DNA from: Vicinamibacterales bacterium
GTDB lineage: Bacteria > Acidobacteriota > Vicinamibacteria > Vicinamibacterales > UBA2999
Assembly (NCBI GenBank): GCA_036742665.1
Contig: DAINQP010000004.1
Coordinates: 382-64,381 of the forward strand
DNA length: 64,000 bases
Direction of reading: 5' to 3'
Shown: one piece after another, positions 4,726 through 38,639 of the stretch
How positions within the stretch are numbered: position 1 is the first letter of the stretch
How the letters are laid out: each line of letters opens with the position of its first letter
Translations under genes and position numbers: made by a program
Notes under the pieces: generated by a model
The model's database searches: none
The model's input: only the letters and a program-made list of their open reading frames with translations
Told to the model about the DNA's origin: nothing

Positions 4726-4877
4726 CCGTACTCCGTGTTCATGGGAGGTTGACCTGTGTACGGTAGAAAACAGGGATTTCTGCGCCGTGACGCGGGAGTT
4801 AAATCTGGGTTACGGACCCGCCTATGCTTCGATCGGCAGCAGAACTCAAGCCCGGCCGGGTTTGGTAGTATCCACGG

Positions 4878-21702: not shown

Positions 21703-21715
21703 GACTCACTCCTTA

Positions 21716-21771
21716 TATATTCGCTTAGCCGAATATACGGCCGCCGTGGTATATTCGTCAAGGCGAATATA
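21716..21771. promoter_or_regulatory. Two identical 22-bp operators TATATTCG-N6-CGAATATA in the arsM/arsR divergent region (candidate ArsR sites with embedded -10 boxes)
   Basis: IR1 is at 21716-21737 and IR2 at 21750-21771, 34 bp start to start. The arm distal to each gene reads TATATT toward that gene. IR1 starts 2 nt from the arsM SD and IR2 ends inside the arsR SD (AGGAG). Confidence 0.6.
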
Positions 21772-21780
21772 GGAGAGCGG

Positions 21781-23257: not shown

Positions 23258-23285
23258 CCCGGGGTCAGACCCCGGGTCAGACCCC
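23249..23285. repeat. REP family a, array A: three tandem 12-nt palindromic units GGGGTC(T/A)GACCC
   Basis: ggggtctgaccc ggggtcagaccc cgggtcagaccc c. Reads as GSDP/GVRP in shadow ORFs. Confidence 0.85.
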
Positions 23286-23466
23286 AACGACAAGTGTCAA
23301 CGGCGGTTGTCGCGTCGACAATCACGCGACAGGTTTTCCTCACGAACTTCTTGGCTCGCCTATTGAAAGCTCGGGTTCGAGATTTCAACAGGCTTGTCAC
23401 GCGTGCGGTGTTCGAGGCGGCAGATCCTGCCAAAGTACCGACGTCGCGCCCATCGATGCCGAAATT

Positions 23467-23503
23467 GGGGTCAGACCCGGGGTCAGACCCCGGGTCTGAC
23501 CCC
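23467..23503. repeat. REP family a, array B (inverted relative to array A)
   Basis: ggggtcagaccc ggggtcagaccc cgggtctgaccc c. Contains the phoR-like stop codon (23483-23485). Confidence 0.85.
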
Positions 23504-25267
23504 GCCCTCACCTGGCAGGGTCACGGTGAAGACGGCGCCGCCGGTGACGGCATTCTCCGCGCGGGCATCGCCGCCGTGCAGCTCCACCAGATGCTTGACG
23601 ATCGCGAGACCGAGTCCGGTCCCGCCTGGCCGCGCCCGTGACTTGTCCACGCGATAGAACCGCTCGAATACCCGTCCGAGATCCTCTGGCGGAATCCCCG
23701 GCCCCGAATCGGCGACCGTGATCGTGTATTTCCCATTCAGACGCGACGCCGCCAGCGTGACATCCGCACCATCGGGCGAATAGTTGACCGCGTTCTCCAC
23801 CAGATTGCGAACGATGTCGTGCAGCTTGGCCGGATCGCCCTCGACCTGCGTCGCATCCTGCGCCACCTCGATCGCCACACGCTGGCCCTTCGCCTCGATC
23901 GACGGCGACAGATCGGCAATGACGCCGCTGAAGATCTGTCGCACGTCACAGCGCGTCATCTCCAGTGCCTCCTGACGGGCATCGAGCCGCGCCAGCCGCA
24001 GCAGATCTTTCACCAGCCGCTCCATTCGCGTGGTATGGCGCGCGATGATCTCGAGAAACTTCTGCGTGCCGTCAGCAACGCCTGCGCCACCGGCGCCCTC
24101 GTCGAGCAAGGCCTCGACGTAACCGCGAATCGCCGTCAACGGCGTGCGAAGCTCGTGCGACACGTTGGCGACGAAGTCGCGCCGGATCTGATCGGCGCGC
24201 CGCAGGTCGGTGATGTCGTGCAGCACGAGCACTGCGCCACCGCCGCCGCTGCCGGAAACAGACGCGGCACGCGCAAAAAACGTACGCCCCGGGTCGCGCG
24301 TCAGCGCCACCTCCAGGCTGCCCGCATCCTCACCGCTCAGCGCGCGGGTGAGCTGCGCCGCGATATCAGGGTGACGAATCACCTCGAGATACGAACGGCT
24401 CGTCGCCGACGGATCGACGCGCAGCATCTCCTGCGCCGCACGATTCACAAGCTGCAACCGTCCTTGCCGATCGACGAGGAGGACGCCTTCGACCATGCCG
24501 GCGAGAATCGCTCCCATCCGCGCGCGATCGCGGGAGAGCTCTTCGAGCCGCCCACCGAGTTCCTGCACGGACGTATCGAGCGCACGGGCGACCGTGCCGA
24601 GCTCGTCGTTGCCGTAGTCGTAGGTCGATCGCGAGAGATCGCCGGCTGAATACCGGTCGGCGACGCGGGCAATCGCTTGCACCCGTCGCGCGAGCGGCGC
24701 CGACAGGATCCACGACACGATGAGCGCCAGCGGAATCGCGACCGCCATCGCCGTCAACGCCGCGCGTCGAATGGCCGCGAGTTGTTCATCGATGTCAGTG
24801 AGCGGAAGAGCGAGACGCACATATCGCACCACCGGATGCGATGCACGAACGGCGACGTACAGCATGTCGGTATCCACAGTTGTGCTGTATCGCTGGCTGG
24901 TGCCGAGGCCTCGCTGGCGTGCGGCGACGACTTCCGGCCGTAACGCGTGATTCTCGAGCGAGTCGAGGGTCTCGGCAGGCTGCGTGGAATCGCCCACCAC
25001 ACGCCCGTCCTCGGCAACCAACGTGATGCGAGTGGAGACGAGCTGCCCGAGCCGATCGGCTTCGGCGTCGAGTGCCCGGCCATCGATGGCCGGCGCTTGT
25101 GACAGGAGTTCGGCGATGAGCCGCGCTTCATCGGCGAGCCGCTGCTCGAGCGCAGATCGCTGCTGGCTGCGAGCCTGCCACGACAGCAACGCGGCGAGCG
25201 CGACCAGCGATACTGCGGCCGCCACCACAGAGGCAACGAATACCTTGGTGCGAAAGCTGGTGCGCAT
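23483..25267 (-). CDS. phoR: PhoR-like sensor histidine kinase (TM-sensor-TM, HAMP, PAS, HisKA, HATPase)
   Basis: VSHELRTPLTAIRGY H-box; NLVENAVNY, DSGPGI and GGTGLGLAIV ATPase boxes. Last gene of the DUF47-pit-phoB operon. Confidence 0.75.
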   Translation of the reverse strand: MRTSFRTKVFVASVVAAAVSLVALAALLSWQARSQQRSALEQRLADEARLIAELLSQAPAIDGRALDAEADRLGQLVSTRITLVAEDGRVVGDSTQPAETLDSLENHALRPEVVAARQRGLGTSQRYSTTVDTDMLYVAVRASHPVVRYVRLALPLTDIDEQLAAIRRAALTAMAVAIPLALIVSWILSAPLARRVQAIARVADRYSAGDLSRSTYDYGNDELGTVARALDTSVQELGGRLEELSRDRARMGAILAGMVEGVLLVDRQGRLQLVNRAAQEMLRVDPSATSRSYLEVIRHPDIAAQLTRALSGEDAGSLEVALTRDPGRTFFARAASVSGSGGGGAVLVLHDITDLRRADQIRRDFVANVSHELRTPLTAIRGYVEALLDEGAGGAGVADGTQKFLEIIARHTTRMERLVKDLLRLARLDARQEALEMTRCDVRQIFSGVIADLSPSIEAKGQRVAIEVAQDATQVEGDPAKLHDIVRNLVENAVNYSPDGADVTLAASRLNGKYTITVADSGPGIPPEDLGRVFERFYRVDKSRARPGGTGLGLAIVKHLVELHGGDARAENAVTGGAVFTVTLPGEGGVRPGV

Positions 25268-25314
25268 ATCCGGGGCAGATCGTGATTCTTGCGCTCGAGG
25301 CGTTCACGCAAGAA

Positions 25315-26004
25315 TCAAGACATGACGCCATCTTCCACAAGCTTGTAACCGAACTGTTTCACGGTCACGAGCGCGTCAACCAGGAACGGTAATTTTTCAC
25401 GCAGCCGCCGGACGTGGACGTCCACGGTGCGTGTCCCTCCCGTATAACGGTAGCCCCAGACGTCACCGAGCAGCAGATCCCGCGAGAGGACACGTCCGCG
25501 ATGCTGCAGCAAGTACTGCAACAGCATGAACTCCTTGGCCGTCAGCTTCACCTCACGTCCCTCGTCCAGCACGGTATGCCGGCCCAGGTCCATGACCACT
25601 GGGCCGAACGCAAGCGTTGAGCCTTCCGGCTCCGTCCGCTTCGATCGGCGCATCAACGCGCGCACGCGCGCGACCAGCTCGTTGGGGCTGAACGGCTTCG
25701 AAATGTAATCGTCGGCGCCGATTTCGAGACCGATGATGCGGTCGCTCTCTTCGGCGCGCGCCGTGAGCATGATGATCGGAATCGCCGCAGTGTTCTTGTC
25801 CGCCCGCAGCGCACGACAGACTTCCAGGCCGCTCAAGCCTGGCAGCATGATGTCGAGGATGACGAGGTCGGCCGGGTTGCGGCGGGCGCTGGCCAGTGCC
25901 TCGTCCCCGGTTCCCGTGATGTGTGCGCGCCAACCGGCGCGCGAAAAGTAGTGGGCAATCAGATCGGCGATGTCGCGATCGTCCTCGGCGACGAGTATGT
26001 TCAC
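25315..26004 (-). CDS. phoB: PhoB-like OmpR-family response regulator
   Basis: MNILVAEDDRDI...DLVILDIMLPGLSG...GADDYISKPFSPNEL...TVDVHVRRLREKL. Confidence 0.8.
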   Translation of the reverse strand: MNILVAEDDRDIADLIAHYFSRAGWRAHITGTGDEALASARRNPADLVILDIMLPGLSGLEVCRALRADKNTAAIPIIMLTARAEESDRIIGLEIGADDYISKPFSPNELVARVRALMRRSKRTEPEGSTLAFGPVVMDLGRHTVLDEGREVKLTAKEFMLLQYLLQHRGRVLSRDLLLGDVWGYRYTGGTRTVDVHVRRLREKLPFLVDALVTVKQFGYKLVEDGVMS

Positions 26005-26094
26005 GTCGCCGTCATTATCCCATGCGGCTTACAACGTTCGCCGGCCGCTCCCGCCTTCGCCCCCGGCGCGACGCGGACACGTTGGTGGGACACG

Positions 26095-27117
26095 TCAGGC
26101 GGCGCGGAAGATTGCTCGAATCAGACCATAGGCGATGGCGCCGATCGCCGCTGACGCCGGAATCGTCAGCATCCACGCCCAGACGATCTGGCCTGCGACT
26201 CCCCATCGTACCGCCGACAGCCGTTTGGTCGATCCGACGCCGACGATGGCCCCCGTGATCGTGTGCGTTGTGCTGATGCCGGTCCCCATCGCGGTCGCGG
26301 TATAGATCGCCAGCGCAGCCCCCGTCTCAGCGGCGAAACCGCCAATCGGTTGCAGCTTGGTGATCTTCGATCCCATCGTCTTGATGATGCGCCAGCCGCC
26401 CGACAGCGTGCCAAGGCCAATCGCAGTGTAGGCCATCAGCTCGACCCAGATCGGGATGGGCAGCTTGCCTGCGGCATCGCGGTCCAGAAAACCGCCCGTG
26501 AACAAGGCTCCGGCCATGATGCCCATGGTCTTTTGCGCGTCGTTCGCACCGTGCATCAGGCTGAATGCCGCAGCGGAGAGCAGCTGCATACGACGAAAGA
26601 ACGCATCGACGCGCCGAGGCGTGGCGTTCCTGAATATCCAGTGGCTGAGGGTCATCAGCGTCAGGCCGACGACGAGTCCAATGAACGGGGCGATGACGAT
26701 GAAGATCAGCGTTTTTGTCCAGCCGGAGACGATGATGGCGGCGAAGCCGGCCTTCGCAACGGCGGCGCCGGCGTAGCCACCGAACAGCGCGTGCGACGAG
26801 CTGGTCGGCAACCCGAAATACCACGTGATCAAATTCCACAAGATCGCCCCGGTGAGACCGCCGAAGATGACAGCGAACGTCACCACGTTCAGATCCACCA
26901 TCCCTGAGCCGACGGTCTGCGCGACGCCCGTCCCGAAGAAGAATGCCGCGGCGAAGTTGAAGAACGCTGCCCACAGCACCGCTTGTCCCGGGGTCAGCAC
27001 GCGTGTGGAGACGACGGTGGCAATCGAGTTCGCGGCGTCGTGGAAGCCGTTGATGTAATCGAAGATCAGCGCAACGCCAATGAGCGCGAGGACCGGCAGC
27101 AGCAGTGGGTTGTTCAT
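26095..27117 (-). CDS. pit: PiT-family inorganic phosphate transporter
   Basis: FDYINGFHDAANSIATVVST at the N-terminus, duplicated GANDAQKTMG motif, ~10 TM helices. Confidence 0.9.
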   Translation of the reverse strand: MNNPLLLPVLALIGVALIFDYINGFHDAANSIATVVSTRVLTPGQAVLWAAFFNFAAAFFFGTGVAQTVGSGMVDLNVVTFAVIFGGLTGAILWNLITWYFGLPTSSSHALFGGYAGAAVAKAGFAAIIVSGWTKTLIFIVIAPFIGLVVGLTLMTLSHWIFRNATPRRVDAFFRRMQLLSAAAFSLMHGANDAQKTMGIMAGALFTGGFLDRDAAGKLPIPIWVELMAYTAIGLGTLSGGWRIIKTMGSKITKLQPIGGFAAETGAALAIYTATAMGTGISTTHTITGAIVGVGSTKRLSAVRWGVAGQIVWAWMLTIPASAAIGAIAYGLIRAIFRAA

Positions 27118-27132
27118 GCGTGGGCGGATGTG

Positions 27133-27756
27133 TCAGCCGTGCTTGACGACCACGCCTTCGAGGAGGTTGCAGACGTCTTCGCACCGGTCAGTCGCAGCCT
27201 CCAGGAAGTCGAAGATCTCCTTCCACTTGATGACCGCGATCGGGTCGCGTTCCTCGTCGAACAGCGCGACGATGGCGTCCTGGTGTACGCGGTCGGCTTC
27301 ACGTTCGAGCTGATTGACGCGCGCGGCGAGCTCCAGCACGCCCTGGCTCTGCTTCTCGAGGATGGACAGTGCCTCGGTGATCCGGTCGCAGCAGTCGCAA
27401 ATGATGTCGGCGAGCCGGCGGGCGTGCGGTCTGATGTTGGTGATCTTGTAGAGGCGAATAACCGCGGCAGCCGCGTCAATCGCGTCCATCACGTCGTCGA
27501 GGGAAATCGCGAGAGCGTGGATGTCCTCGCGGTCCAACGGGGTGACGAACGTCCGGTTCAAACGGTCGATGATCGACCGGGTCCGGCCGTCGCATGCATG
27601 TTCGATGTCCTTGATGACATCCGCTTTGGCCATATCCGGCGGATTGCTCGAGACCATCTGCTTGAGCGTCCGTGCGCCGACGCGGATCTCCTCGGAAAGG
27701 CCGACGAAGTCGTGAAAAAACTGTTCTTCGCGGGGAATCAGACTGAAACGGGCCAT
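27133..27756 (-). CDS. DUF47 / PhoU-like phosphate-transport regulator (YkaA/PitR type)
   Basis: MARFSLIPREEQFF...; an all-helical ~207-aa protein directly upstream of pit. ATG at 27756 is preceded by GAGGTG. The track ORF extends spuriously to 27867. Confidence 0.8.
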   Translation of the reverse strand: MARFSLIPREEQFFHDFVGLSEEIRVGARTLKQMVSSNPPDMAKADVIKDIEHACDGRTRSIIDRLNRTFVTPLDREDIHALAISLDDVMDAIDAAAAVIRLYKITNIRPHARRLADIICDCCDRITEALSILEKQSQGVLELAARVNQLEREADRVHQDAIVALFDEERDPIAVIKWKEIFDFLEAATDRCEDVCNLLEGVVVKHG

Positions 27757-27777
27757 GTCACCTCGACAATCGACGGA

Positions 27778-27817
27778 TCGTAACAGATTTAACCCATCTG
27801 TTACATGACCGTTACAG
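27778..27817 (-). promoter_or_regulatory. Pho-box-like array upstream of DUF47-pit-phoBR
   Basis: In gene orientation: CTGTAAC ggtc ATGTAAC agat GGGTTAA atct GTTACGA, heptamers at an exact 11-bp period. The same sequence also reads as a perfect 9-7-9 palindrome GTAACAGAT-N7-ATCTGTTAC (27780-27804). A possible -10, TTAAAT, is embedded. Confidence 0.4.
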
Positions 27818-27918
27818 CCTCTTCGGGTGAGGAGCACTCGACGCCGAGTGAGCGCACCCGCATCCACACATGCTCTAGGGAACGCGCAGTCGCGGTTATT
27901 GCGTCGAGGAAGATTTCG

Positions 27919-28740
27919 TTACTTCCCGACCCACGTGAAGTTCACGCCCGCGCCGCCGAGAGCCGCCGCCGGCGACACCGCGAACCGTGCGTTGCCGTGG
28001 CCGATCGTGACCGTGCGACCCGCAACCATCCCGATCGCCGCGCCAAAGGCGACGTCGCTGAAGTAATGACGTTGACTCTGGATGCGAGACGCCGCCACAT
28101 ACGACGCGACAGCATAGGCCGGGATGCCCGCCTTCCACCCGAGATGGCGCTGGAGTACCGTGGCCGTTGCGAAGGCCGATGCCGAGTGTCCCGACGGGAA
28201 CGAAAGCGATGTTCCGTCCGGACGTGTGCGGCCGGTACCGAGCTTGATGACCTGCGTCATCGTTTGCGAGACGAACTGCGCGCGGACGAGATCGGCGCCG
28301 ATGATCGCCAGGTTCGGATTACCGGTGGCCCGGCCGATCGAGTATGTCGCGAAGGCCGCCGCGAGCTGCGTCGTGGCCGCGCCAACCGTTTGTCCGGCGC
28401 CGAACGCCCCGTGCATCGATTGGGCACCCGAAAACGATTGTGACAAACGTGCGTCGGAAGGATGACCGGCGGCTGCAGTCAGCCCGCCAATTCCCAGGAT
28501 AATCGCCGAGTCACGAGACGGCACGCGTCGGAAATCGGTGATCGTATCGGCGAAAATCCGTCCAAGACTGGGCACGAAATCCGCGGCGGGCCGGGCGTTG
28601 AGCGTTGGAGCAACGGGCATCGGCGCAAGTGTTTGCGCCGACAAGTCACGGGGAACGAGTGTGATCCCGGTCCACAGTGTGGTTGTGATCAAGAAGGCGT
28701 ACGCAGGTTGTCTCATGGAATCGTGCCCATCCGAGTACAA
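27919..28740 (-). CDS. PAP2-family (type 2 phosphatidic-acid-phosphatase-like) membrane phosphatase
   Basis: KLGTGRTRPDG ... SFPSGHSA ... ASRIQSQRHYFSDV (the three PAP2 motifs) and an N-terminal signal/TM segment. Confidence 0.8.
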   Translation of the reverse strand: MYSDGHDSMRQPAYAFLITTTLWTGITLVPRDLSAQTLAPMPVAPTLNARPAADFVPSLGRIFADTITDFRRVPSRDSAIILGIGGLTAAAGHPSDARLSQSFSGAQSMHGAFGAGQTVGAATTQLAAAFATYSIGRATGNPNLAIIGADLVRAQFVSQTMTQVIKLGTGRTRPDGTSLSFPSGHSASAFATATVLQRHLGWKAGIPAYAVASYVAASRIQSQRHYFSDVAFGAAIGMVAGRTVTIGHGNARFAVSPAAALGGAGVNFTWVGK

Positions 28741-28764
28741 GCGTCGATCGTTGGAACGACGGTT

Positions 28765-30456
28765 TTACTTTTGGACGACCGACTTGCTGGTTCGGTCGAG
28801 ACCGACCGTCTCCCACTGCGTGCCGTTGCGGCGGAAGGTAAACGTAACGGGGTTGGACCATGCCGGATAGTCCGCATGGATCGAGCGGATGCTGACGCTG
28901 AGAAATGCTGAATCGAGCAAAGCCTCTGGCGTCTCGATGCGAACGCCATGCAAGACGCCGTTCGTACGGCCGACCGTGGTGCCGTCGACGAATTGACTCG
29001 TTGCGCCAGTCGCGTTGTCGAAGCGCGACCATGTGAATCGGTATTCGCTGGGAGCGGTGGCAATGCCCGCCTCGACCGCCGCGTTCTCGAACATCAGCCC
29101 GCCGTCTACGAGGAGCTGCGCGTTCACGAGAGGATTGACACCAGTCAACCACGCACGCAGGACCTTGTCGCGCCGTTTGATTAATGTGGTGGCAATGTGC
29201 TCGGCCGCACCCGGCTCGCTATATCTGGCTTTGGCCACCACGGCGCGAATTACCTCATCGCTGAACTTCGACACCAGCCGCGCGGCCCAGAACGCATCCT
29301 GCGGCGTCATGTTGTCGAAGGCCGGGTTCGGATACTCGGGCCGCCATTGGACCGGGTCGAAAAAATCTCCTTCGAACCTGCCGACGGACTTCGCGCCTTC
29401 CCAGTAGTCCACCAGGATCCATGGCCGCACATAGATGCCGAGTGTCGCGAGCGTCTTGAACCCAGGTCCCCATTCGAGGATGTACTCGTTGCCTGCACGC
29501 GGCACCTGCGCCGTCGTGCTGCCGCTGCCCATGATCGAGCCGAAGTCGAACATGTAGTGGCGGATCCACTGACGACCGGGCGCCTCACCTTCGAGCATGT
29601 CGAGGCTGTTGAGGCCGCGCGAGTCGTCATGATTGAGCCACGCAGCGAACACACGGTTGCTACGAAGCTCACGCCGGTGCTCGTGCGGGTGAATGTCGTT
29701 GGGGTCGTCCGGTCGCGTGCCGTAGTACTTGAAATATCCGAGCGGCTTGCCATCGGCAAAGCGGCTGAGGGTCGCGCGGTATTTGCCATTGGGCAGCTTC
29801 GCCGCCACACGGAGCAGCCGATCGACGTTCGTGCGTGTAATCGGGACCTTGCGACCACGCAGATCCACGGTGGTCGCGTTGGGGGCGATGACGATCCTGG
29901 CCGGGTCCACCTCGACGATGTAGCCCTGCACTACGTTGTAACCAATCGCGTGATAGAAGGCGGCACCGATCACTTCGGCCCCGCTCGCCATCTCTGGATT
30001 GCTCGGCGGATCGAACTTCACCTGGTACAAACGCCCATCCGGCGCGACGACGCGATAGCCGGGTGTGATGCCGCTGCTCTTGCCCTCGATGACCGGCCAG
30101 TCGTCGATATTGAGCGCATCCAGCGTGTTCGGTCCGCGAACGATCTCATCGACCGACATGCCGGGGAGGCGGCCGATCCGGTTGGTGAACCAACTCGAAT
30201 CCGGGACTTCGTCGATCGTGTTGACGTTGACGGCCTGAATCGGCCGACGTTCGGCGGGCTTGATGAACGTCTGCTCGGCGAAGTCGTAGGCATTGCTGCC
30301 TTCGATTCGTACCGCCTTGCTCGCATCGAGGGCGCGGTCGAAGTCCTCCCGCGCCGGGTCGTCGGGGAAGTAAACCGGTGTGGCGCTTCGCGTCGTCAAC
30401 GTCAAAGCGACACAGGCGATCGCGGCGAGCGGCAGCAGCCACCGCCTAGAACACAT
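28765..30456 (-). CDS. Exported protein with a protein-kinase-like fold motif set (uncharacterised family)
   Basis: N-terminal signal or possible lipoprotein sequence MCSRRWLLPLAAIACVALTL. RLYQVKFD (beta3 Lys), GAEVIGAAFYH (alphaC Glu), WLNHDDSRGLNS (HxDxxxxN with canonical spacing), HYMFDFGS (DFG). Confidence 0.55.
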   Translation of the reverse strand: MCSRRWLLPLAAIACVALTLTTRSATPVYFPDDPAREDFDRALDASKAVRIEGSNAYDFAEQTFIKPAERRPIQAVNVNTIDEVPDSSWFTNRIGRLPGMSVDEIVRGPNTLDALNIDDWPVIEGKSSGITPGYRVVAPDGRLYQVKFDPPSNPEMASGAEVIGAAFYHAIGYNVVQGYIVEVDPARIVIAPNATTVDLRGRKVPITRTNVDRLLRVAAKLPNGKYRATLSRFADGKPLGYFKYYGTRPDDPNDIHPHEHRRELRSNRVFAAWLNHDDSRGLNSLDMLEGEAPGRQWIRHYMFDFGSIMGSGSTTAQVPRAGNEYILEWGPGFKTLATLGIYVRPWILVDYWEGAKSVGRFEGDFFDPVQWRPEYPNPAFDNMTPQDAFWAARLVSKFSDEVIRAVVAKARYSEPGAAEHIATTLIKRRDKVLRAWLTGVNPLVNAQLLVDGGLMFENAAVEAGIATAPSEYRFTWSRFDNATGATSQFVDGTTVGRTNGVLHGVRIETPEALLDSAFLSVSIRSIHADYPAWSNPVTFTFRRNGTQWETVGLDRTSKSVVQK

Positions 30457-31672
30457 GGCCGAACCTCATGATGAAGTGCGCGCCCGCAGAACTGCCGAAC
30501 GCACCCTCGACACGGAGGAACACGCCGTTGGCGGTGCCGAACCTGAACCCGATGCCGAAGTCGCGCTCGAAGTCGCTCAGGTGGAAATCCTGACGCCGCG
30601 GCGCAACCTTGCCGATGTCGTAGAAGAGCGCGCCATCGATGGCGGTGAAGATCTCCCAGCGATATTCGGCCTGGAACAGCAGCGTGTTGCGATCGCGGAA
30701 TCGGAAGTGGCGAAATCCTCGCAAGTCGTCGGGGCCGCCGAGCGTCGGCTGGAAATAGAACGGGACTTCTGCGCCCGCGTCCGCGTCGGTCATGACCGCA
30801 CGCGCGTGCAGGGCCAGCACGCGGCGATCGCGAACGATCGGCACATAGTGCTGCAGATCGATGTCCACGCGGTTGAACGAGAACAGATCGATTTCGGTAT
30901 CGTCGAAGCGATGATAGGTGACCGCGTAGCGGCCGCCCCGGCGCGGGTTGCCGAGCGGGGCGCGATTGTTGACGTCCAACGTGGCCAAGTACCTGAAGAA
31001 GTCCGGCTGTACGAGAACGCCGGGCGCATCAGCCGGTCCGAACACCCGCAAGAGGCTGTCCTCTTCGCTGATCGCGTCGATGTCGGGGTTGTAGTAATCG
31101 AGACCCGCGGTCAGATTCAGCCACGCCATCGGCCGGTAGGTGCCATACCCGCCAAGCACGGTGTTCCTGAGACCGTAGATGACCTCGTCGTCGCGTGACG
31201 AGTCAGGCCCGAGACCGAAGAAGTCCTCCTTCGGAAAGTCGTAGCGTTGCGCGTGCACGCCCAGCCCCACCCTTCCGTTGGCCAGCCGCGGCGCCTGCAG
31301 GCGCGCGTCGATCATCCAGTAGTGGGAGAACGACGCGGCGACGAAGCTGCTGAACTCGAGTTGTCCGTCGAACCAGCGCGGATAGCGGTATCCGGGGCCG
31401 AACGAGAAGCCGCTACCCGTCGTGATGTTACCGATTTTCGGATAGAGCCCTTCGGCAGGATTCAGGATGCGCTCGAAGACGCGGCCGCTTTCGAGGTCCA
31501 TCAAGGCCCGCTCGAGGCGGCTCTGTTGCGGCGGCGCGAGGTTCAGCGCCTTCTCCTCGCGCTCACGCTGCAGCGTTTCGGCGCGCGTCTTCGGCTCTTG
31601 AGCCTTCGTCGCGGCCGGCGCGACGACGCACACGACGAACGTGAGGAGCCGAATGAGTCCCACCTGTCGCAT
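30446..31672 (-). CDS. Omp85/Bac_surface_Ag-type outer-membrane beta-barrel without POTRA domains
   Basis: Signal peptide ...VAPAATKAQ; TLGGPDDLRGFRHFRFRDRN...AEYRWEI...FYDIGKV...GIGFRF; terminal aromatic ...RFGHVF. Confidence 0.65.
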   Translation of the reverse strand: MRQVGLIRLLTFVVCVVAPAATKAQEPKTRAETLQREREEKALNLAPPQQSRLERALMDLESGRVFERILNPAEGLYPKIGNITTGSGFSFGPGYRYPRWFDGQLEFSSFVAASFSHYWMIDARLQAPRLANGRVGLGVHAQRYDFPKEDFFGLGPDSSRDDEVIYGLRNTVLGGYGTYRPMAWLNLTAGLDYYNPDIDAISEEDSLLRVFGPADAPGVLVQPDFFRYLATLDVNNRAPLGNPRRGGRYAVTYHRFDDTEIDLFSFNRVDIDLQHYVPIVRDRRVLALHARAVMTDADAGAEVPFYFQPTLGGPDDLRGFRHFRFRDRNTLLFQAEYRWEIFTAIDGALFYDIGKVAPRRQDFHLSDFERDFGIGFRFGTANGVFLRVEGAFGSSAGAHFIMRFGHVF

Positions 31673-33018
31673 TACGCCGCGTGGCGCTCTGAGGTTTCAG
31701 CGCCCACCATTTTGCGATGTTCGCGCGCGATGCCGACTGCGAGCAACAGCCACACACCCACGAGTACCACGTTCACCAGCGCGAAGCTGCGGAGGGTCAA
31801 CGAAAGCACTTCGGTGCCGAGGAAGACTACAGCCGCCTGCAGCAGATCGCCGGTCCTGACGAAGAAGGCATCTATGGCCTGCTTGGCGTTGTACTTGGCC
31901 TCGCGGCTCGTCGGCAGGAACAGCGCGTGCCGGGTCGTGTTCTGGATCGAGTAGTCGGTGGCGTTCTCGAAAATCTTCGTCCACTGCAGAACGAGCAGCA
32001 CGGGGACTAGCAGGACGGCGGTGTATCCGCTCAAGGCGATCAGCGGCAGGACGAACAGCGCGCCGCGGACACCGATGTACTTGAAAATTCTCGAGACGGC
32101 GAATGTCTGCAAGATGAACGCGAGAATGTTCACCGACGAGAGGACCGTGCCCGAGAGCGAGGCGATGATCGCGCGCCGATCGGCGGCGGCGGCGAGACCG
32201 GCCGCGATACGCGCGTCGGCCGTTTTCGTGATGAGGTCGTTGAGCATGAATCCGCCGAGCGTGTTCACGAGATTGAAGACCAGCACCATCAGCGCAATCA
32301 GCAGCAGGTAGCGATTGGTCAGCACGAGCTTGAAGCCGTTGCTGCCTTTCGCAAGCGGCTGCTCGCTGACAACCTGCGCGTCGCGCCGCATTTCAGCCTC
32401 TCGACGGTTGACGACGATCGTGAGGACTACCGGGACCAGCATGCCAGCGGCGGCGACCAACATGAGCACATAGGGACCGATGCCGCCAAATACCAAAGTC
32501 GCCAGCAGTGAACCGAGCGCCGCGCCCAGCGTCGCGCCGACGCCGACCAGCGGAAAGAGTCGCTTGCCCCGCTCGGAGTTGTAGACGTCGTTGGCGAACG
32601 CCCAGAACTGTGCGACCGCCACCATGTTGAAGACGCCAATCCAAATGTAGAACGCCACGCCGATGCGCACACCGGCCGACCCGAGCGCCCAGAAGACCAG
32701 CAGATGCGACGCGAAGAACAGCGTCACGCCGCAGACCAGCCAGACGCGATTGACGCGCGCCGAGAAAGCGCTGTAGGCAGGGACGAAGATAAAGAGGATC
32801 GCCGCCATGCCCGCGGCAGCATAGCTCGCCGCGACAGCGCCCGACTCGCTGAGGATCAGCGCTTCGCGAACCAGCTTCAGGACCTGGTAGAACGCGAGCA
32901 GGTAAAAGGCATTGGCCGCGAGCAGCAGGGCGCTGACGCCTTCGCCCGCCCGCACCTCCGTCACGACCGAGAGGGCACGTTCGAGGAGACTCTTCTGCGA
33001 CGGAGCGGTGTCCAGCAT
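31672..33018 (-). CDS. 12-TM transporter resembling the TLC (ATP/ADP or nucleotide antiporter) / MFS family
   Basis: The N-terminal pattern FYLLAFYQVLKLVREALIL..GA....YAAAG resembles the TLC signature (F..Y.ilR..Kd.L). ~12 hydrophobic segments. The family assignment is by eye only. Confidence 0.5.
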   Translation of the reverse strand: MLDTAPSQKSLLERALSVVTEVRAGEGVSALLLAANAFYLLAFYQVLKLVREALILSESGAVAASYAAAGMAAILFIFVPAYSAFSARVNRVWLVCGVTLFFASHLLVFWALGSAGVRIGVAFYIWIGVFNMVAVAQFWAFANDVYNSERGKRLFPLVGVGATLGAALGSLLATLVFGGIGPYVLMLVAAAGMLVPVVLTIVVNRREAEMRRDAQVVSEQPLAKGSNGFKLVLTNRYLLLIALMVLVFNLVNTLGGFMLNDLITKTADARIAAGLAAAADRRAIIASLSGTVLSSVNILAFILQTFAVSRIFKYIGVRGALFVLPLIALSGYTAVLLVPVLLVLQWTKIFENATDYSIQNTTRHALFLPTSREAKYNAKQAIDAFFVRTGDLLQAAVVFLGTEVLSLTLRSFALVNVVLVGVWLLLAVGIAREHRKMVGAETSERHAA

Positions 33019-33027
33019 CAGCAGATG

Positions 33028-34695
33028 CTATATCGTGACGGCCTCCGCTGTATCACGCCGCGGTTCGCTGACCTTGAGCGGCCCCGACAGCTGTGGCAGG
33101 TGCATCCGCCACCAGCCCTTGGCTTCGTCCGAGTTCCATTCGTCGCGAATCCGCACGCGGCAGGCCATCTGATACAACTCGCCGGCGTCCTGTGGCCGAT
33201 GGCGCGGATCTTTCTGCAGGCAGGCGAGGACCAGTTCATCCAGCTCACGCGGAACCGTTTGCTCGGTCCTCTCCGACGGCGGCGTCGGCTGCGCGTGCAG
33301 GTGCTGCATCAGCATCTTCATTGAGGTGTCGGCCTCGAACACGAGTTCCCCGGTGAGCAGGAAGTATGCGACGCAGCCCAGGGAATAGACGTCGGCCCGG
33401 CGGTCCACTTCGGCGTCGCCGAGGATCACCTCGGGTGCCATGTAGGCCGGTGTACCCGGTGTCGAGTTCTCGCGTGTCGCGAGCGTCTGCGCGTCGCGCC
33501 CCTGGCCTGATGATGTCTGTATCTTGACCAGGCCGAAGTCGAGCACCTTGGCAAAGTCGTATTCCAGCCCCATGCGGCAGACATAAATGTTGGCCGGCTT
33601 GATGTCGCGATGCACCAATCCTCGCGCGTGCGCATCGGCGAGCGAATGACACACCTGGCGCAGCAAGTAGAGGACGCGATTCGGCGGCAACGGTCCAAAC
33701 TCGCGGACCAGCGATTCGAGGTCGCGGCCGGTGAGCAGCTCCATCACGTAGTAGAAGGTTCCGTCCTGCGTGATGCCGAAGTCGAACACCTGAATCGTGT
33801 GCGGTGAGCTCAGCACCGCAGTGGCCTGCGCTTCGCGCTCGAACCGTTTCAGCGTCAGCCGCGCTTCGTTCTCGTCGCGTGCCCCGAGCACTTCCGGCCG
33901 CACCAGCTTGATCGCGGCATCGCGCGCCAGCAGCCGATGCTCGGCGCGCCACACCTCGCCCATGCCTCCGGTGCCAAGGCGTTCGATCAGGTGGTAGCTG
34001 CCGAGATCCTGCGCCTCGCGCAAACGGCGGCCGAGCCGCTGCAGCACTCGCGCCGGCACCACCGCGACGAACGCACACGCATAGCTGGGCCAGGTAATGA
34101 TGAACACGTAGGCCGGGTCCAGCGCCCTGCCGCCCAGCAGCCAGGCGATCGAGTACGCGATCGGATCGAATGACGCGACGATGATCGACGCGATGAACAT
34201 GCGCCGCGGCGTGCTCGGTGCGATCATCGCGAAGATGAGGATCAGCAGGCAGATCCACGAGATCCGCATGATGTCGGTGCCGGCCGGCGGCACCGCCCAC
34301 GCATTGAACGCCGCGATCCCGGCGCCGTGCATCAACATCATCGCGACGCCGGCGTTGCTCTTGCTCTCGATGCTGGTACTGGCGCTGCGCAGGTGCCAAT
34401 ACATCACCGCCGAACCGGTGACCCCGCACAATTGCAAGATGATCGCCCGCAAGTTGCGGACCCAGCCGTTCCACAGCCACGGCATGACGAACGAGTCCAG
34501 CATCAGGGCGAAGGTCCACAGCACCAGTGCCACCGTGCTGAACACGACCAGCCGCTGGGCCTGCTCCGACAGCAGCTCCGTTGGCAGCCGCGTCGTTCGG
34601 CCTGAATCGCCGATCGAGGACGCCGGCGTGGCGTGCGGTGCAATTCGACGTGATTCGTGGCTCGTGCCCATCCGGGGTTCCGTGCCCTCAGGCAC
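33028..34695 (-). CDS. Ser/Thr protein kinase with an N-terminal ~6-TM domain and a C-terminal Hanks kinase domain
   Basis: LGTGGMGEVW, AAIKLV, HRDIKPANIYV, DFGLVK, GTPAYMAPE. The kinase occupies residues ~235-500, preceded by six hydrophobic helices. The GTG start overlaps the upstream stop (GTGCCTGA). Confidence 0.85.
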   Translation of the reverse strand: MPEGTEPRMGTSHESRRIAPHATPASSIGDSGRTTRLPTELLSEQAQRLVVFSTVALVLWTFALMLDSFVMPWLWNGWVRNLRAIILQLCGVTGSAVMYWHLRSASTSIESKSNAGVAMMLMHGAGIAAFNAWAVPPAGTDIMRISWICLLILIFAMIAPSTPRRMFIASIIVASFDPIAYSIAWLLGGRALDPAYVFIITWPSYACAFVAVVPARVLQRLGRRLREAQDLGSYHLIERLGTGGMGEVWRAEHRLLARDAAIKLVRPEVLGARDENEARLTLKRFEREAQATAVLSSPHTIQVFDFGITQDGTFYYVMELLTGRDLESLVREFGPLPPNRVLYLLRQVCHSLADAHARGLVHRDIKPANIYVCRMGLEYDFAKVLDFGLVKIQTSSGQGRDAQTLATRENSTPGTPAYMAPEVILGDAEVDRRADVYSLGCVAYFLLTGELVFEADTSMKMLMQHLHAQPTPPSERTEQTVPRELDELVLACLQKDPRHRPQDAGELYQMACRVRIRDEWNSDEAKGWWRMHLPQLSGPLKVSEPRRDTAEAVTI

Positions 34696-36967
34696 CCTTG
34701 TCCACGCGTTTGCGCAGCTCTTCGAGATTCAACATGATCGACTCATTCGATCGCAAGAGGTCGGCCAGGATCTCATCTCGCTGGCGGACGTCGCGCGGTG
34801 CCGCCTGTTCGCGGCCGAGGAACGGCCACAAACGCTGACTCAGGTCCTGCGGCAGTACGCCTTCGAGATACTCGAGCGCCGTGCCGCGCAGCTTCGGATC
34901 GTCGGTGTGAAGACCGCGATAGGCAATTTGGAGCGGTGCCGTCGGCAGCACGAGCGACAACAGGGTGAAGACATGCGCGAGGCTCTGGCCCGCCCGATCC
35001 TTCAGGAACTCATCGACAAACGACCGCTGCTCGGGATCGATGCTGTCGAGCAGACGATGACTCTGCCACACCGGACGGCCGACCGCCACTTCCTTGCGCA
35101 CCACGTCGAATACGCGCTCGCGATCGATCCGGACGCGTGGATTCTTCTCGAGGATCGACGACAGCGATCGGCCGCACTGAAATCGTACTTCGAAGCGCAG
35201 ATCCTCGAGACCGAGCAACAGCCCATCGACTGCGCGCTGTGACACGCAGATAGAAAACACCCGCGCCAGCCGCCGCCGGACGGCGAATGGCTGGTTGGGA
35301 TCGAGCAGGGCGTCGATCAGCTCACCGACACGTTCCTCGGCAATCTTGCGCAACGCCCGCACGGCGTCTTCGGCGACCGGATCCCAGGCGAGGAGGGGGA
35401 TCACGTGTGGGACCAGTGTCGGCGGGAGCCCTTCCTCGTCGCGCAGCACACTGAGGACGCGGTCCCGATTCCGCGACTTCAGCGCCATGATCTCCATCAC
35501 CTCCGGGTCGCCGACGGGAACCGGGTGCTCCATGGTCATCGCACCCGTCAATGAGGTCGTCACGATCGTACGGTCGCGTGTCAGGCCGGCCGTGAACGGC
35601 GTGCGGAGCGTGCGAATCATCGCCGTGCGCGTCGTGATGTCTTCCACGTCCGACAAGTCGAGTTCGACCGCGCGATCGAGCAGGCTGCGCTCGAGTGTCT
35701 GGATATAGCCGGTACTGAGTCGTCTCGCCACGACGATCGCCACCCCGGAACATGCAACGGCGGCGAGCAGGATCGCGCCGTATTGCTGCGTCGCCGGGAG
35801 CAGGATGAGCAGCCGCACCACACCACCGCCGACCGCATCGCCGAGCCGATCGAAGCCGACATCGATGATCGACTTGGCGGCGCGTTTCTCGTCGGCCGGG
35901 ATCGGCGTATAGAAGATCTCGTAGCCAGTCCGGAACAGCGAGCCGCGGAAGACCGACTCACCCGTGCGCGCGAGCAGCGCGCCAGCCAGGCCAGGAAACG
36001 CAAGTCCGAGCAGGCCGCCGACCGTCAGCGCGATTGACGGCGTGCTTGCTGTAAGACCCAGGCCCAACCGCTCTAGCGCCAGGGCGCTCGACGTGGTCTG
36101 GACCAGGAACGACAACAAGCTGACACCCGCGTAATAGAGCGCGAAAAAGCGCAGCAGGCTGTCGCCGCGTCCGAACGTCTCGACGGCCTGAGCCTTGAAG
36201 ACGTAGTCGGCCAGCGCGGCGCCGATCGTCCCGAGCAGCACGAGTGCCGCGAGATTGCGCAGATACGGTGCCTGTGCCAGCACATGGAGACCAGACTGCG
36301 GCGACGTCGCGGCCAGATCAGGCGGCACAGTCTCGAGCGTGGCGTGCTGCGAAGGCGGCGCCGATTGCGCAAGCCGCCGAATCTGCCAGGCGCAGAACAC
36401 GTTGACAACGGCCAACAGCGGCAGCATCGCCGTCACCCCAACCATGACCGCCACGCGTTCGGCGACGAGCGCACCACCAAGGCCGGCGAGCGTCCCGACG
36501 CCGGCGATTCGGCCGAAGTGATGCCGTGCGGTGTGCGGATCGAAGCGCTCGGTGGCAATCAGCCAGAAGCTCGAACCGAGCATTGGACCCAGACCGGAGA
36601 TCTGCAGGTAGACCAGCCGCGCCGCCAGGACCGGCGTCGAGAACGTCAGCAGCCACGAGGCAAACAGCAGGGCGCCGCTGAGCGCGAAGGCAATTGGCAC
36701 GAACGTCGCCGGCGATACCCTCTGCAGGCCACGCGAGCTCGCTATCACAAGGAGGATCGACACCACGGCTGTGGCGATCACGATCGTCGGCAGCGTTGTA
36801 ACGTCGAGGTTCGCGAGGTACAGCGCGTCCCGCGTGGCCTTACCGGCGATGAACTGCGCGCTCACGGCCGCCGAGCAGATCATCGCGATCATGACTGCCG
36901 GGTCGGCCCGGGTCTGTGATGAGGTCATCGGAACAGTCGGGGTACGGGGAATGCGCGCCTTCGGCAC
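34688..36967 (-). CDS. TLC/MFS-like polytopic transporter fused to a ~330-aa C-terminal HEAT/ARM-like helical repeat domain
   Basis: N-terminal GKATRDALYLANLDVTTLP... pattern and ~12 TM helices, then repeated ~30-aa helical units (..VIPLLAWDPVAEDAVRALRKI.., ..LLDPNQPFAVRRRLARVF.., ..GLHTDDPKLRGTALEYL..). GTG at 36967 is preceded by GAGGGG. Confidence 0.5.
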   Translation of the reverse strand: MPKARIPRTPTVPMTSSQTRADPAVMIAMICSAAVSAQFIAGKATRDALYLANLDVTTLPTIVIATAVVSILLVIASSRGLQRVSPATFVPIAFALSGALLFASWLLTFSTPVLAARLVYLQISGLGPMLGSSFWLIATERFDPHTARHHFGRIAGVGTLAGLGGALVAERVAVMVGVTAMLPLLAVVNVFCAWQIRRLAQSAPPSQHATLETVPPDLAATSPQSGLHVLAQAPYLRNLAALVLLGTIGAALADYVFKAQAVETFGRGDSLLRFFALYYAGVSLLSFLVQTTSSALALERLGLGLTASTPSIALTVGGLLGLAFPGLAGALLARTGESVFRGSLFRTGYEIFYTPIPADEKRAAKSIIDVGFDRLGDAVGGGVVRLLILLPATQQYGAILLAAVACSGVAIVVARRLSTGYIQTLERSLLDRAVELDLSDVEDITTRTAMIRTLRTPFTAGLTRDRTIVTTSLTGAMTMEHPVPVGDPEVMEIMALKSRNRDRVLSVLRDEEGLPPTLVPHVIPLLAWDPVAEDAVRALRKIAEERVGELIDALLDPNQPFAVRRRLARVFSICVSQRAVDGLLLGLEDLRFEVRFQCGRSLSSILEKNPRVRIDRERVFDVVRKEVAVGRPVWQSHRLLDSIDPEQRSFVDEFLKDRAGQSLAHVFTLLSLVLPTAPLQIAYRGLHTDDPKLRGTALEYLEGVLPQDLSQRLWPFLGREQAAPRDVRQRDEILADLLRSNESIMLNLEELRKRVDKGA

Positions 36968-37211
36968 GCGAGAACCCCTCGATGCGAGACGATTTCGTTC
37001 ATGGTATCACCCGCCTTCGCGTTAGGGCTTCGGCGTGGCAGGCCCTGCCTTTCGTCGGACGTAGCCTGCCTCCGGCGGGCCAACCTGACCAGGGCAGCTT
37101 GCGTGTATCCGGACAGTTGGCGTGCCCAGGACACTGGCAGGTGGTTCGTTCTCGTCCCGGTCCGCCGAACCGGTAGAAAGTGATCGTGTTCTGTATGATG
37201 CGTGGGTCCCT

Positions 37212-38639
37212 ATGACCAGAACTCGCGTTCGATCGGTCATATCTGCCGGCGCCATCGTCCTCGCGTTGTGGGGTCCCGCGGCGCTGGCGCAAGGCCGCGC
37301 TCAGGCCACCGCGCTACCCGTGCTCACCGATCTCGACGGCACGATCGAATCACTGGTCCGCACCGTCGATCCATCGGTGGTGCAGATCTTTACGTCCGGA
37401 CTCGCGACAAGTGAAGGCGTGGTGAAGGGGCCGTCGGATCTCGTCACCCCGGTGCGAGCCAGCGGCTCGGGCGTCGTCGTGGACGCCGAGGGATTCGTCA
37501 TCACCAATGCGCACGTCGTGCGCGGTGCGTCGCGGATCCGGGTCGAAGTGCCGGTGTCCCCGGCCGGGCAGTCGCTCCTCGCACGCCGCAGCCGCATCGT
37601 CACGGCGCGGCTCGTCGGCTTCGACCAGGAGACCGACATCGCGGTGCTGAAAATTGATGCGAGCGGTTTGCGCGCGCTGCCGTTCGGAGACTCCGACGGC
37701 CTCAAAGCGGGGCAGGTCGTGCTGGCGTTCGGCAGCCCGTTGGGCCTGCAGAACTCGGTATCGCTTGGCATTGTCAGCGCTGTGGCCCGGCAACTCGAGC
37801 CCGAATCGCCGATGGTCTATATCCAGACCGACGCGTCGATCAACCAGGGCAACAGTGGCGGCCCGCTGGTCGATGCGAGGGGCCATCTGGTCGGCGTCAA
37901 CACGCTGGTCGTGTCCACCTCCGGCGCCAACAGCGGGCTGGGGTTCGCCGCACCGAGCAACATTGTCAAGACGGTGTTCGATCAGATCAAGCAGAGCGGC
38001 CGTGTGCGACGGGGTGAGATCGGTGTGAGGGCGCAGACGGTGACCCCGGTGCTTGCAGCGGGACTGGGTCTGTCGCGCGACTATGGCGCAGTGCTCGCTG
38101 ATGTCGTGCCCGGTGGGCCGGCCGATCGCGCGGGCCTGGCCGTCGGCGACCTGGTGCTGTCGATCGATGGCAAGCCGATCGAAAACGGACGTCAGCTCAA
38201 CGTGACGCTGTATCGCAAGGCCGTCGGCGACGTGGTCAGACTCGACGTGTTGCGCAACGAACAGGTCAAGACGGTGAACGTCTCGGTGGCCGAACGCAAC
38301 GATCCGCTGTCGCGGATTACCGGGCTCGCCGATCCACGACAGAACGTCGTCGAGCGTCTCGGGATCCTCGGTGTGACCCTTGGGCCCGACGTTGCGGCGC
38401 TGCTACCGCTGTTGCGCGCGAAGTCAGGTGTGGTGGTCGTCTCGGCGACGGCCGGCACGTTCGACGCCGACAGCGGCGTGCTCGTGCCCGGCGATGTGAT
38501 TCATGCGGTGAACGGCACGTGGATCATGACGCTCGAGGCGCTGCGCGGCGCACTTGCGGGCAAGAAGGCTGGGGATGCCGTGGTGCTGCAAATCGAGCGT
38601 CTCGGTCTTTTGAGTTACATCGCGTTCACTCTCGACTAA
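37212..38639 (+). CDS. DegP/HtrA-family periplasmic serine protease with two PDZ domains
   Basis: Signal peptide ...GPAALAQG; GSGVVVDAEGFVITNAHVV (His); DIAVLK (Asp); GNSGGPLVD (Ser). Confidence 0.85.
   Translation: MTRTRVRSVISAGAIVLALWGPAALAQGRAQATALPVLTDLDGTIESLVRTVDPSVVQIFTSGLATSEGVVKGPSDLVTPVRASGSGVVVDAEGFVITNAHVVRGASRIRVEVPVSPAGQSLLARRSRIVTARLVGFDQETDIAVLKIDASGLRALPFGDSDGLKAGQVVLAFGSPLGLQNSVSLGIVSAVARQLEPESPMVYIQTDASINQGNSGGPLVDARGHLVGVNTLVVSTSGANSGLGFAAPSNIVKTVFDQIKQSGRVRRGEIGVRAQTVTPVLAAGLGLSRDYGAVLADVVPGGPADRAGLAVGDLVLSIDGKPIENGRQLNVTLYRKAVGDVVRLDVLRNEQVKTVNVSVAERNDPLSRITGLADPRQNVVERLGILGVTLGPDVAALLPLLRAKSGVVVVSATAGTFDADSGVLVPGDVIHAVNGTWIMTLEALRGALAGKKAGDAVVLQIERLGLLSYIAFTLD

Follow-up and report, generated by a model that had tools for sequence, protein, structure and literature searches.

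A conserved gene neighbourhood pairing a POTRA-less Omp85 barrel with a predicted exported kinase-fold protein in Acidobacteriota and other phyla

The DNA considered here, which we call the window, is a 64,000-nucleotide stretch from a soil metagenome-assembled genome of a Vicinamibacterales bacterium of the Acidobacteriota (GenBank assembly GCA_036742665.1, contig DAINQP010000004.1, positions 382 to 64,381 of the forward strand), with a base composition of 63–66% GC. At 27919-36967 it holds six close-packed open reading frames (ORFs), all on the minus strand, which we number g1 to g6 from the upstream end (Table 1). The centre of this cluster is a pair of genes, g4 and g5, for an outer-membrane barrel of the Omp85 family and a predicted exported protein with a kinase fold. 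We found that this pair is nearly constant across distant bacteria and that carriers, regulators and phosphoesterases travel with it in several gene orders.

An initial annotation of this DNA had described a translationally coupled operon of six genes, and their coordinates and the five junction sequences read identically in our analysis. The first two genes overlap by 8 nt (GTGCCTGA), g2 and g3 are separated by a 9-nt gap (CATCTGCTG), g3 and g4 share a TAATG overlap, g4 and g5 overlap by 11 nt (ATGTGTTCTAG), and g5 and g6 lie 24 nt apart (28741-28764) if the longest g6 ORF is taken. All coordinates are those of the longest possible ORFs, and the starts of g2 and g6 are uncertain. Starting g2 at the ATG of codon 9 (34671) instead of the GTG at 34695 would turn its 8-nt overlap into a 16-nt gap, and for g6, the starts chosen by public gene callers are the ATG of codon 9, for a protein of 265 aa, and codon 41, for one of 233 aa; with either, the gap behind g5 widens to at least 48 nt. 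The N-terminus of the 265-aa form is a plausible signal peptide, and the ATG at 28716 is likely the true start. The overlaps and gaps stand as described; coupling across the cluster is something that we infer.

A consensus scan of the cluster gave no convincing internal terminator, its three weak minus-strand matches all lying within coding sequence; terminator matches in total were rarer than in shuffled sequence, and both terminator and promoter consensus scans are uninformative at 64% GC. In 12 of 21 orthologous loci the motif G[ATG]TAnnAT occurs in the 150 nt before g1, where shuffles lead one to expect 0.69, and the candidate extended -10 element GATACCAT in the window may be a promoter directly before g1. 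A short imperfect hairpin lies within the 24 nt that separate the stop of g5 from the longest g6 ORF, and a search against Rfam found no credible RNA element in 23000-38000.

Table 1. Positions of the six genes and of other features in the window
Feature	Position	Strand	Length	Description
g1	34688-36967	minus	759 aa	NTT/TLC-like carrier with HEAT-like tail
g2	33028-34695	minus	555 aa	polytopic membrane Ser/Thr kinase
g3	31672-33018	minus	448 aa	single-domain NTT/TLC-like MFS carrier
g4	30446-31672	minus	408 aa	POTRA-less Omp85-family outer-membrane barrel
g5	28765-30456	minus	563 aa	predicted exported protein-kinase-like (PKL) protein
g6	27919-28740	minus	273 aa	PAP2-family phosphatase
Candidate extended -10 element	37001-37008	minus		34-41 nt upstream of g1 start
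Hairpin	28741-28764			lies within this stretch; plus-strand form at 28746-28764
Repeat	27780-27816	minus		TGTAAC-N5-TGTAAC direct repeat (11-bp period) overlapping a perfect 9-bp inverted repeat; g6/PhoU_div spacer
Further repeat copies	2091-2107, 3647-3674, 4798-4814, 17220-17236
PhoR-like histidine kinase	23483-25267	minus		periplasmic sCache-like domain between two membrane segments
HtrA/DegP-like protein	37122-38639	plus		Trypsin_2 and two PDZ domains
Phosphate-related run	1288-3628	plus		CHAD protein, His_Phos_1 phosphatase, DAGK_cat/YegS-type lipid kinase
MFS-like/spermidine synthase ORF	4878-7355	plus	825 aa	MFS-like membrane region and spermine/spermidine synthase domain
Arsenic-resistance-like set	~20857-23257	plus		ArsR-type helix-turn-helix, MIP aquaglyceroporin, ArsC-like low-molecular-weight phosphatase
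bPH_2 protein	40387-42033	minus	548 aa	three bPH_2 domains

Conservation was judged on 69 genome loci, mostly from Vicinamibacteria, and 80 diverse metagenome loci, the latter retrieved with a 12-sequence subset of the g5-family alignment because the full alignment was too diverse. Where enough upstream sequence was present, the gene just before the g5 homolog, in the same orientation, was a g4-like barrel gene in 63 of 65 genome loci and 54 of 55 metagenome loci (117/120 together). The barrel and g5-like pair also occurs in Marinimicrobia, in a second Acidobacteriota lineage and in Calditrichia, and the module is present in Zixiibacteriota as well. The full six-gene order, with small gaps, was seen in about 19-22 of the 51 related genome loci that had enough flanking sequence, and a divergent metagenome locus (L143), whose g5 is 40% identical, keeps the same order. 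Elsewhere the families are shuffled into at least five gene orders and recur around g5 homologs that are 30-40% identical: g4-g5-g3 may come first, with g1 and g2 after it in the opposite orientation, the order may be g4-g5-g2-g1, or g3 may diverge from g4-g5. Three very distant, lipoprotein-type relatives extend the range. One (L159, 40% GC) joins a kinase-like gene to orthologs of g1, g2 (membrane domain included), g3 and g4 and to an exported Metallophos enzyme; the second (L160, 36% GC) reads Omp85, Omp85, kinase-like, TLC, TLC-HEAT and cyclic-nucleotide-binding (cNMP-binding) protein, with PAP2 and DAGK_prokar genes divergent upstream; and the third (L161), from Calditrichia, reads Omp85, kinase-like, TLC, TLC. 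The linkage spans genomes of 36% to 64% GC.

What is conserved is a near-constant pair of Omp85 and kinase-like genes plus four variable accessory roles (two NTT/TLC-like carriers, one of them HEAT-tailed, a regulator and an exported phosphoesterase), not a fixed six-gene operon. Some roles are refilled by non-orthologous proteins: Metallophos replaces PAP2 in some loci, and in L160 a cNMP-binding protein stands in for the Ser/Thr kinase. That the roles are kept through such replacement and through rearrangement is strong evidence for a functional link. An adjacency that arose by chance, with no functional system behind it, is barely credible and close to refuted by synteny; the two uncertain start codons speak for it, and the recurrence of the family set near such distant g5 homologs, in several orders and at very different GC, speaks against it. 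The initial annotation had named a lack of synteny in relatives as its point of failure; the combination is conserved in the related loci, in L143 and in the distant loci, with order, strand, phosphoesterase and regulator varying.

The pair also occurs in more than one copy. Several Vicinamibacteria have a second barrel/kinase-like pair that is 45-52% identical to g5 and comes without carriers (paralogous loci among L012-L068, for example L043 8682-13553), and L160 has a second pair at 616-3849. Two g5 homologs stand in tandem in L095 (6992-10271), and L103 and L147 have the order g5-g4-g5. The HtrA/DegP-like gene that diverges from g1 in the window was considered as a further part of the system and set aside, its adjacency being confined to the four closest genomes.

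The g5 query has no match in Pfam, NCBIfam or PADLOC, and comparison of g5 and its family profile with PDB sequences gave a chance 20-residue match to adenylate kinase and armadillo repeats, which we do not regard as meaningful. An exhaustive search of 1.84 billion representatives assembled a family whose 50%-identity clusters number 3,460, with 905 at <1e-30; none carries a Pfam family, and the source names are all 'hypothetical protein'. An AlphaFold2 model built from 23 sequences (at least 68% identical) was unusable, with a predicted local distance difference test score (pLDDT) of 50, and 60 diverse representatives were used instead. The model from this 60-sequence alignment is confident, with a pLDDT of 93.1 and a predicted template-modelling score (pTM) of 0.92, and in it the signal peptide is followed by an N-terminal wrap (residues 27-118), a kinase-like core (~120-440) and, at the C-terminal end, a beta-sandwich (443-555). 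Foldseek places the model closest to Fam20C in the PDB (E 5e-4, probability 0.99), followed by Fam20A, PINK1, Rio2, SidJ, HipA and HipT; matches at E up to about 0.002 are kinases without exception, and the viral library BFVD adds CotH and PI3K/PI4K. On this model g5 is a putative distant member of the protein-kinase-like superfamily, an assignment limited to the superfamily level because the template-modelling scores (TM-scores) are low (0.27-0.41).

Residue conservation points the same way. The model places a Gly-rich loop between beta1 and beta2, K147 on beta3, E161 on alphaC, D278-x4-N283 in the catalytic loop and D304-F-G at the DFG position, and among the 60 members these residues are kept in 54 (K147), 44 (E161), 54 (D278), 57 (N283) and 60 (D304), or 73-100%. 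Just ahead of the catalytic loop the family has an invariant motif of its own, DDPND..H..RR..R. An N-terminal export signal (signal peptide or lipobox) is found in 58 of the 60, many of the distant ones having a lipoprotein Cys, and the family is therefore predicted to be exported across the inner membrane. A Tat route for g5 was dropped, and Sec export is assumed, because its SRRWLL motif is not kept among orthologs. Taken together, model and sequences make g5 probably an active exported kinase-fold protein, and the earlier description of a signal-peptide protein with a complete set of kinase motifs agrees with the fold, the Foldseek ranking, the conserved residues and the export signals.

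The nearest known relatives leave g5 in a family apart. No Pfam families other than HipA_2 and HipA_C give a signal among g5-family members, and these two match below threshold in 13 and 6 of the 60 (best E 8e-4). HipA and HipT share with g5 the D-x4-N loop and the Mg-binding Asp; HipA, however, is cytoplasmic and paired with an antitoxin, whereas the g5 family is predicted to be exported and has its own DDPND..H..RR..R motif. Fam20C, the closest structure, and Fam20B work outside the cytosol, as is predicted for g5, and on both sides ATP would have to be brought into a compartment with no ATP production of its own; they are about 9% identical to g5 with TM-scores of 0.29-0.37, and unlike g5 they are eukaryotic and have no barrel partner. 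For HipA, Fam20 and CotH alike, a family-level match to g5 was not reached, TM-scores being at most 0.41.

Its partner g4 consists of a signal peptide, a charged helical segment of ~50 aa and an Omp85 barrel. Pfam Omp85 matches residues 185-393 (E=5e-12, 46.4 bits, cutoff 24), NCBIfam assigns the protein to an Omp85 subfamily of ~420 aa, and the translation has an LRGF loop-6 motif, FYDIG and a C-terminal ...RFGHVF with an aromatic terminal residue. No Pfam match to POTRA, POTRA_2 or ShlB was found at E<=0.01. The BamA/TamA insertases have 3-5 POTRA domains and a 16-strand Omp85 barrel, whereas g4 has the barrel domain alone, and it falls well below the insertase families in NCBIfam (scores of 15 and 19 bits for BamA and TamL, whose cutoffs are 297 and 400). 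These sequence features place g4 in the 'noNterm' Omp85 group (Heinz & Lithgow 2014, PMC4104836; Leptospira paralogs, PMC11358297), whose members likewise have a barrel with loop-6/beta-13 type motifs and lack a periplasmic N-terminal domain. The DUF5982 motif of the Leptospira/Cytophagales subset has no match in g4 at E<=0.01. The function of the group is still to be established (PMC4104836, PMC11358297), and a kinase-like partner is not among the published neighbourhoods of its members (PMC11358297, where the word 'kinase' is absent); PMC4104836 likewise draws no such link.

An outer-membrane barrel gene next to a gene for a signal-peptide partner is also the layout of two-partner secretion (type Vb, TpsB/TpsA) and of type Vd (PlpD), and Omp85-family barrels are the translocators of both types (PMC11358297). 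It could be that g4 exports or displays g5, which would then serve as an ecto-kinase or attack neighbouring cells as an effector, with the remaining genes accessory or regulatory. The barrel gene stands directly and almost invariably upstream, with stop and start overlapping, which is the classic barrel-passenger arrangement, and the tandem or duplicated g5 genes beside one barrel in L095, L103 and L147 resemble a duplication of passengers. The resemblance is one of gene layout alone. TpsB has two periplasmic POTRA domains and its passenger a TPS (haemagglutination activity) domain followed by a beta-helix, both domain types being required for recognition in known two-partner systems; g4 has no POTRA, only some 50 residues between signal peptide and barrel, and g5 has a globular kinase fold with a beta-sandwich and no TPS domain. 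Lipoproteins are frequent in the g5 family, and no Omp85 route for their export is known. A kinase outside the cell would, moreover, be without a supply of ATP, and the co-travel of nucleotide-carrier-like genes and phosphoesterases across phyla would be left unexplained. We consider a secretion system of this kind unlikely.

Those carrier-like genes are g1 and g3. By Pfam, PDB matches and hydropathy, g1 has a carrier part of the 12-transmembrane type at about residues 20-415 and a tail of HEAT-like repeats at about 440-759, which is cytoplasmic. Pfam TLC (PF03219) aligns in part with both proteins, at E=5e-8 with g1 (32.6 bits) and at E=8e-10 with g3 (38.6 bits; cutoff 21), and MFS_1 stays below its cutoff in g3. 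ADP/ATP carriers are the only transporters among the significant PDB sequence relatives of the two: the transporter part of g1 matches the chloroplast carrier NTT1 (9j3j), and g3 matches 9j3j and 9j3n best, sharing with them the signature FWxFAN...KRxxPLxGxGA. Residues 514-618 of g1 are most similar to designed HEAT-like alphaRep proteins (E 1e-4); over residues 16-755 the protein shares 33% identity with its L159 ortholog, and the ortholog in L160 has a weak HEAT_2 match in Pfam. To our knowledge, every characterised TLC/NTT protein moves nucleotides or NAD, mostly by exchange.

The same architecture, an NTT with C-terminal HEAT repeats, was reported by Major, Embley & Williams (2017, PMC5381601) to be widespread among bacteria and to lack a characterised function, with Acidobacteria and Marinimicrobia among the lineages that have such genes; that study draws no link to Omp85 or kinase-like genes. 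In L160 the TLC-HEAT ortholog is followed by a cNMP-binding gene, as in PMC5381601, whereas the regulator in the window is the polytopic Ser/Thr kinase g2. This protein has about six transmembrane segments between residues 49 and 213, followed by a Hanks-type kinase domain (234-502; hydropathy and Pfam), matches Pkinase PF00069 at E=4e-43 (148 bits) and has a PknB-like match in NCBIfam; its L159 ortholog aligns over residues 20-554, membrane part included.

The last gene, g6, carries an N-terminal signal or anchor and matches PAP2 (PF01569) at E=5e-13 (49.4 bits, cutoff 27.2). All three PAP2 motifs are present, namely KX6RP (KLGTGRTRP), PSGH and SRX5HX3D (SRIQSQRHYFSD), although by hydropathy its helices are weakly hydrophobic. 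The best PDB sequence matches are the lipid phosphate phosphatases LPP2, LpxE and PgpB, and g6 shares the motifs with the PAP2 enzymes LpxE, LpxF, LpxT, PgpB and LPPs; the match to them is weak, and Metallophos takes its place in other lineages. With 16.4 bits against a cutoff of 177 for the LpxE model NF007159 in NCBIfam, the equivalog level is not reached, and nothing specific to lipid A turned up. For all six proteins the domain calls themselves hold, with Pfam searches, NCBIfam and motifs in agreement.

Phosphoesterases recur beside the pair. A PAP2 gene adjoins it in about 19 of the 51 genome loci and in L087, L099, L143, L145 and L160. In L132, L149 and L156 (a Marinimicrobia genome) the gene next 3' of g5 encodes a Metallophos protein that has a signal peptide or lipobox, and in L159 the exported Metallophos enzyme is encoded upstream of the barrel gene. 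By eye, the motifs GDxG, GDNxY, GNHD and GHxH of one Metallophos protein look like those of the purple-acid-phosphatase type. In L160 a PAP2 gene and a gene of the DAGK_prokar (diacylglycerol/undecaprenol kinase) family occupy 3866-5078, divergent upstream of the barrel genes, a combination that hints at a lipid phosphate as substrate.

How these parts might work together is best asked from where they would sit. The predicted products reach the inner membrane (the two carriers and g2, whose catalytic domain is cytoplasmic), the periplasm or outer membrane (g5 and the phosphoesterase) and the outer membrane (g4). We tentatively favour a reading in which all six genes belong to a single conserved system that spans the envelope and whose carriers supply ATP, whose barrel-held kinase uses it and whose phosphoesterase reverses the resulting mark. 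A kinase that is exported with its ATP/Mg site intact would need carriers to deliver ATP, and the periplasm is usually regarded as ATP-free. Given the ATP gradient of a free-living cell, an exchanger would export ATP to the periplasm and bring back ADP, possibly with inorganic phosphate. What keeps the g5 protein at the outer membrane would be the g4 barrel in this organism and a lipid anchor in many lipobox relatives, and g5 would spend the exported ATP on phosphorylating an envelope substrate, whether lipid, glycan, protein, the barrel or its cargo. The exported PAP2 or Metallophos enzyme would then take the phosphate off, giving a cycle of writing and erasing, and g2 would tune ATP delivery, perhaps through the HEAT tail of g1, a part that would fall elsewhere to the cNMP-binding protein. 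Eukaryotes offer an analogy: the Fam20 secretory-pathway kinases, among them the Golgi casein kinase Fam20C, rely on an ATP/ADP exchanger of the endoplasmic reticulum and Golgi, and we infer a parallel in the supply of ATP. The more specific proposal that bacteria carry out ATP-dependent phosphorylation outside the cytoplasm in this way, by NTT-type ATP export, a Fam20/HipA-like kinase docked on an Omp85 barrel and reset by a phosphoesterase, is one that we regard as possible, if doubtful.

Several observations weigh against the ATP-supply reading. We know of no established precedent for ATP-dependent phosphorylation in the periplasm. Both carriers are distant from characterised NTTs, scoring 26.8 (g1) and 34.7 bits (g3) against a cutoff of 387 for TIGR00769, the family of characterised NTP/NDP exchangers, and the position that we take to correspond to E245 of AtNTT1 is Gly in g3, by a rough mapping; because of this distance and this residue, the substrate of g1 and g3 may be other than ATP. 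The kinase fold of g5 comes with the low TM-scores given above. Among metagenome loci of at least 8 kb, 22 of 37 have no NTT-like gene at the thresholds used, many paralogous pairs in Vicinamibacteria likewise have none nearby, and one g5 relative (P0270, in L075) has neither a barrel neighbour nor a clear signal peptide. Finally, three long members of the g5 family, P0134 (1158 aa), P0209 (848 aa) and P0144 (742 aa), have lost the catalytic-loop Asp (NH-T/F/Y-L/F) and may be pseudokinase variants. We considered whether such long relatives are fusions to known domains and rejected the idea, their C-terminal extensions of 200-600 residues having no Pfam match.

The loss of the catalytic Asp in these relatives is a point in favour of another reading, in which g5 would be a non-catalytic, pseudokinase-like partner of a specialised Omp85 barrel that serves outer-membrane biogenesis or lipid handling, with the other neighbours only loosely related. 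Sam50 works without POTRA domains, a role in biogenesis has been proposed for noNterm Omp85 proteins (PMC4104836), and the lipid enzymes PAP2 and DAGK_prokar adjoin the pair in L160. Even so, we hold this to be improbable, in view of catalytic residues that are conserved at 73-100% among 60 diverse members and of a linkage to carriers and regulators that is kept from 36% to 64% GC and through rearrangements. Of the readings offered in the initial annotation, the one of a periplasmic phosphoryl-transfer or remodelling machine is that towards which the evidence leans, although lipid A as target is not borne out.

The other reading of that annotation was scavenging under kinase control, and it also noted the phosphate genes next door. 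The cluster ends 162 bp upstream of the operon PhoU_div (DUF47)-pit-phoB-phoR, if PhoU_div starts at 27756 as called, and the spacer contains a TGTAAC direct repeat (Table 1). This TGTAAC-N5-TGTAAC pattern has 10 matches in the window against 0.76 expected, and no enrichment was seen for the Pho box of the E. coli type; other copies lie near genes for a CHAD protein, a histidine phosphatase, a YegS/DAGK_cat lipid kinase, a response regulator and a large CarboxypepD_reg outer-membrane barrel. Many Vicinamibacteria loci keep the repeat immediately before PhoU_div-pit, and none of the loci examined has it upstream of g1 or g4. This makes the repeat a candidate operator or Pho box of PhoU_div-pit-phoB-phoR in this class, its identity as a PhoB site being presumptive. 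With the repeat at PhoU_div and not at g1 or g4, the Pho operon appears to be a unit separate from the six-gene cluster, with an operator of its own, and PhoB control of the cluster is not supported. The tie to phosphate is one of adjacency. The PhoR-like histidine kinase of this operon has a periplasmic sCache-like domain and may sense a periplasmic ligand directly.

Adjacency to Pho genes nevertheless speaks for a scavenging role for phosphorus or nucleotides, in which the barrel would admit organophosphates, g5 would bind or process them, the phosphoesterase would free inorganic phosphate and the carriers would import nucleotides. Besides the window, about 15-20 of the 51 related loci show it, and in many loci of a paralogous Vicinamibacteria clade g4-g5 lies ~50 bp upstream of phoB-phoR, with pit-PhoU_div inverted downstream. 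The partner enzymes, PAP2 and a purple-acid-phosphatase-like Metallophos protein, are of types used in scavenging, and characterised NTTs act as importers in parasites (PMC5381601). In the loci examined outside Vicinamibacteria, however, Pho genes are unlinked to the cluster, and the candidate operator of the pit operon is missing upstream of g1 and g4 throughout. Omp85 barrels are not known as nutrient channels, and a role in binding or processing would not explain why g5 conserves a full kinase catalytic set. Scavenging is to us a quite unlikely reading.

Other genes were noted in the window. Near its start is a phosphate-related run of three genes, and CHAD domains are associated with polyphosphate. 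Farther along are an ORF combining an MFS-like membrane region, with MFS_1 below cutoff, and a spermine/spermidine synthase domain, and a set, convergent with phoR and with a methyltransferase gene beside it, that looks arsenic-resistance-like from its predicted domains; its coordinates were mapped from L001 gene calls. Beyond the HtrA/DegP-like gene, the protein with three bPH_2 domains is encoded upstream of a gene with a metallo-beta-lactamase fold.

The initial annotation did not recognise the combination as a described system, and our literature searches agree: a description of it was not found in open-access full texts and bioRxiv, with subscription journals outside the scope of the search. 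Anti-phage defence was also considered and rejected, since of the six proteins only g2 matches PADLOC models, as a generic Ser/Thr kinase. On this evidence we regard the system as one of a new kind, assembled from parts of known superfamilies and one new family, that of g5.

Overall, the locus joins three questions: the role of noNterm Omp85 barrels, the place of NTT/TLC carriers in free-living bacteria and the possibility of kinase chemistry in the periplasm. If the ATP-supply model is true, it would represent a new route by which a bacterium energises or signals to its outer membrane, paralleling the secretory-pathway kinases of eukaryotes. If it fails, the barrel and kinase-fold pair would still be a new and common envelope module, shared by Acidobacteriota, Marinimicrobia, Calditrichia and Zixiibacteriota.

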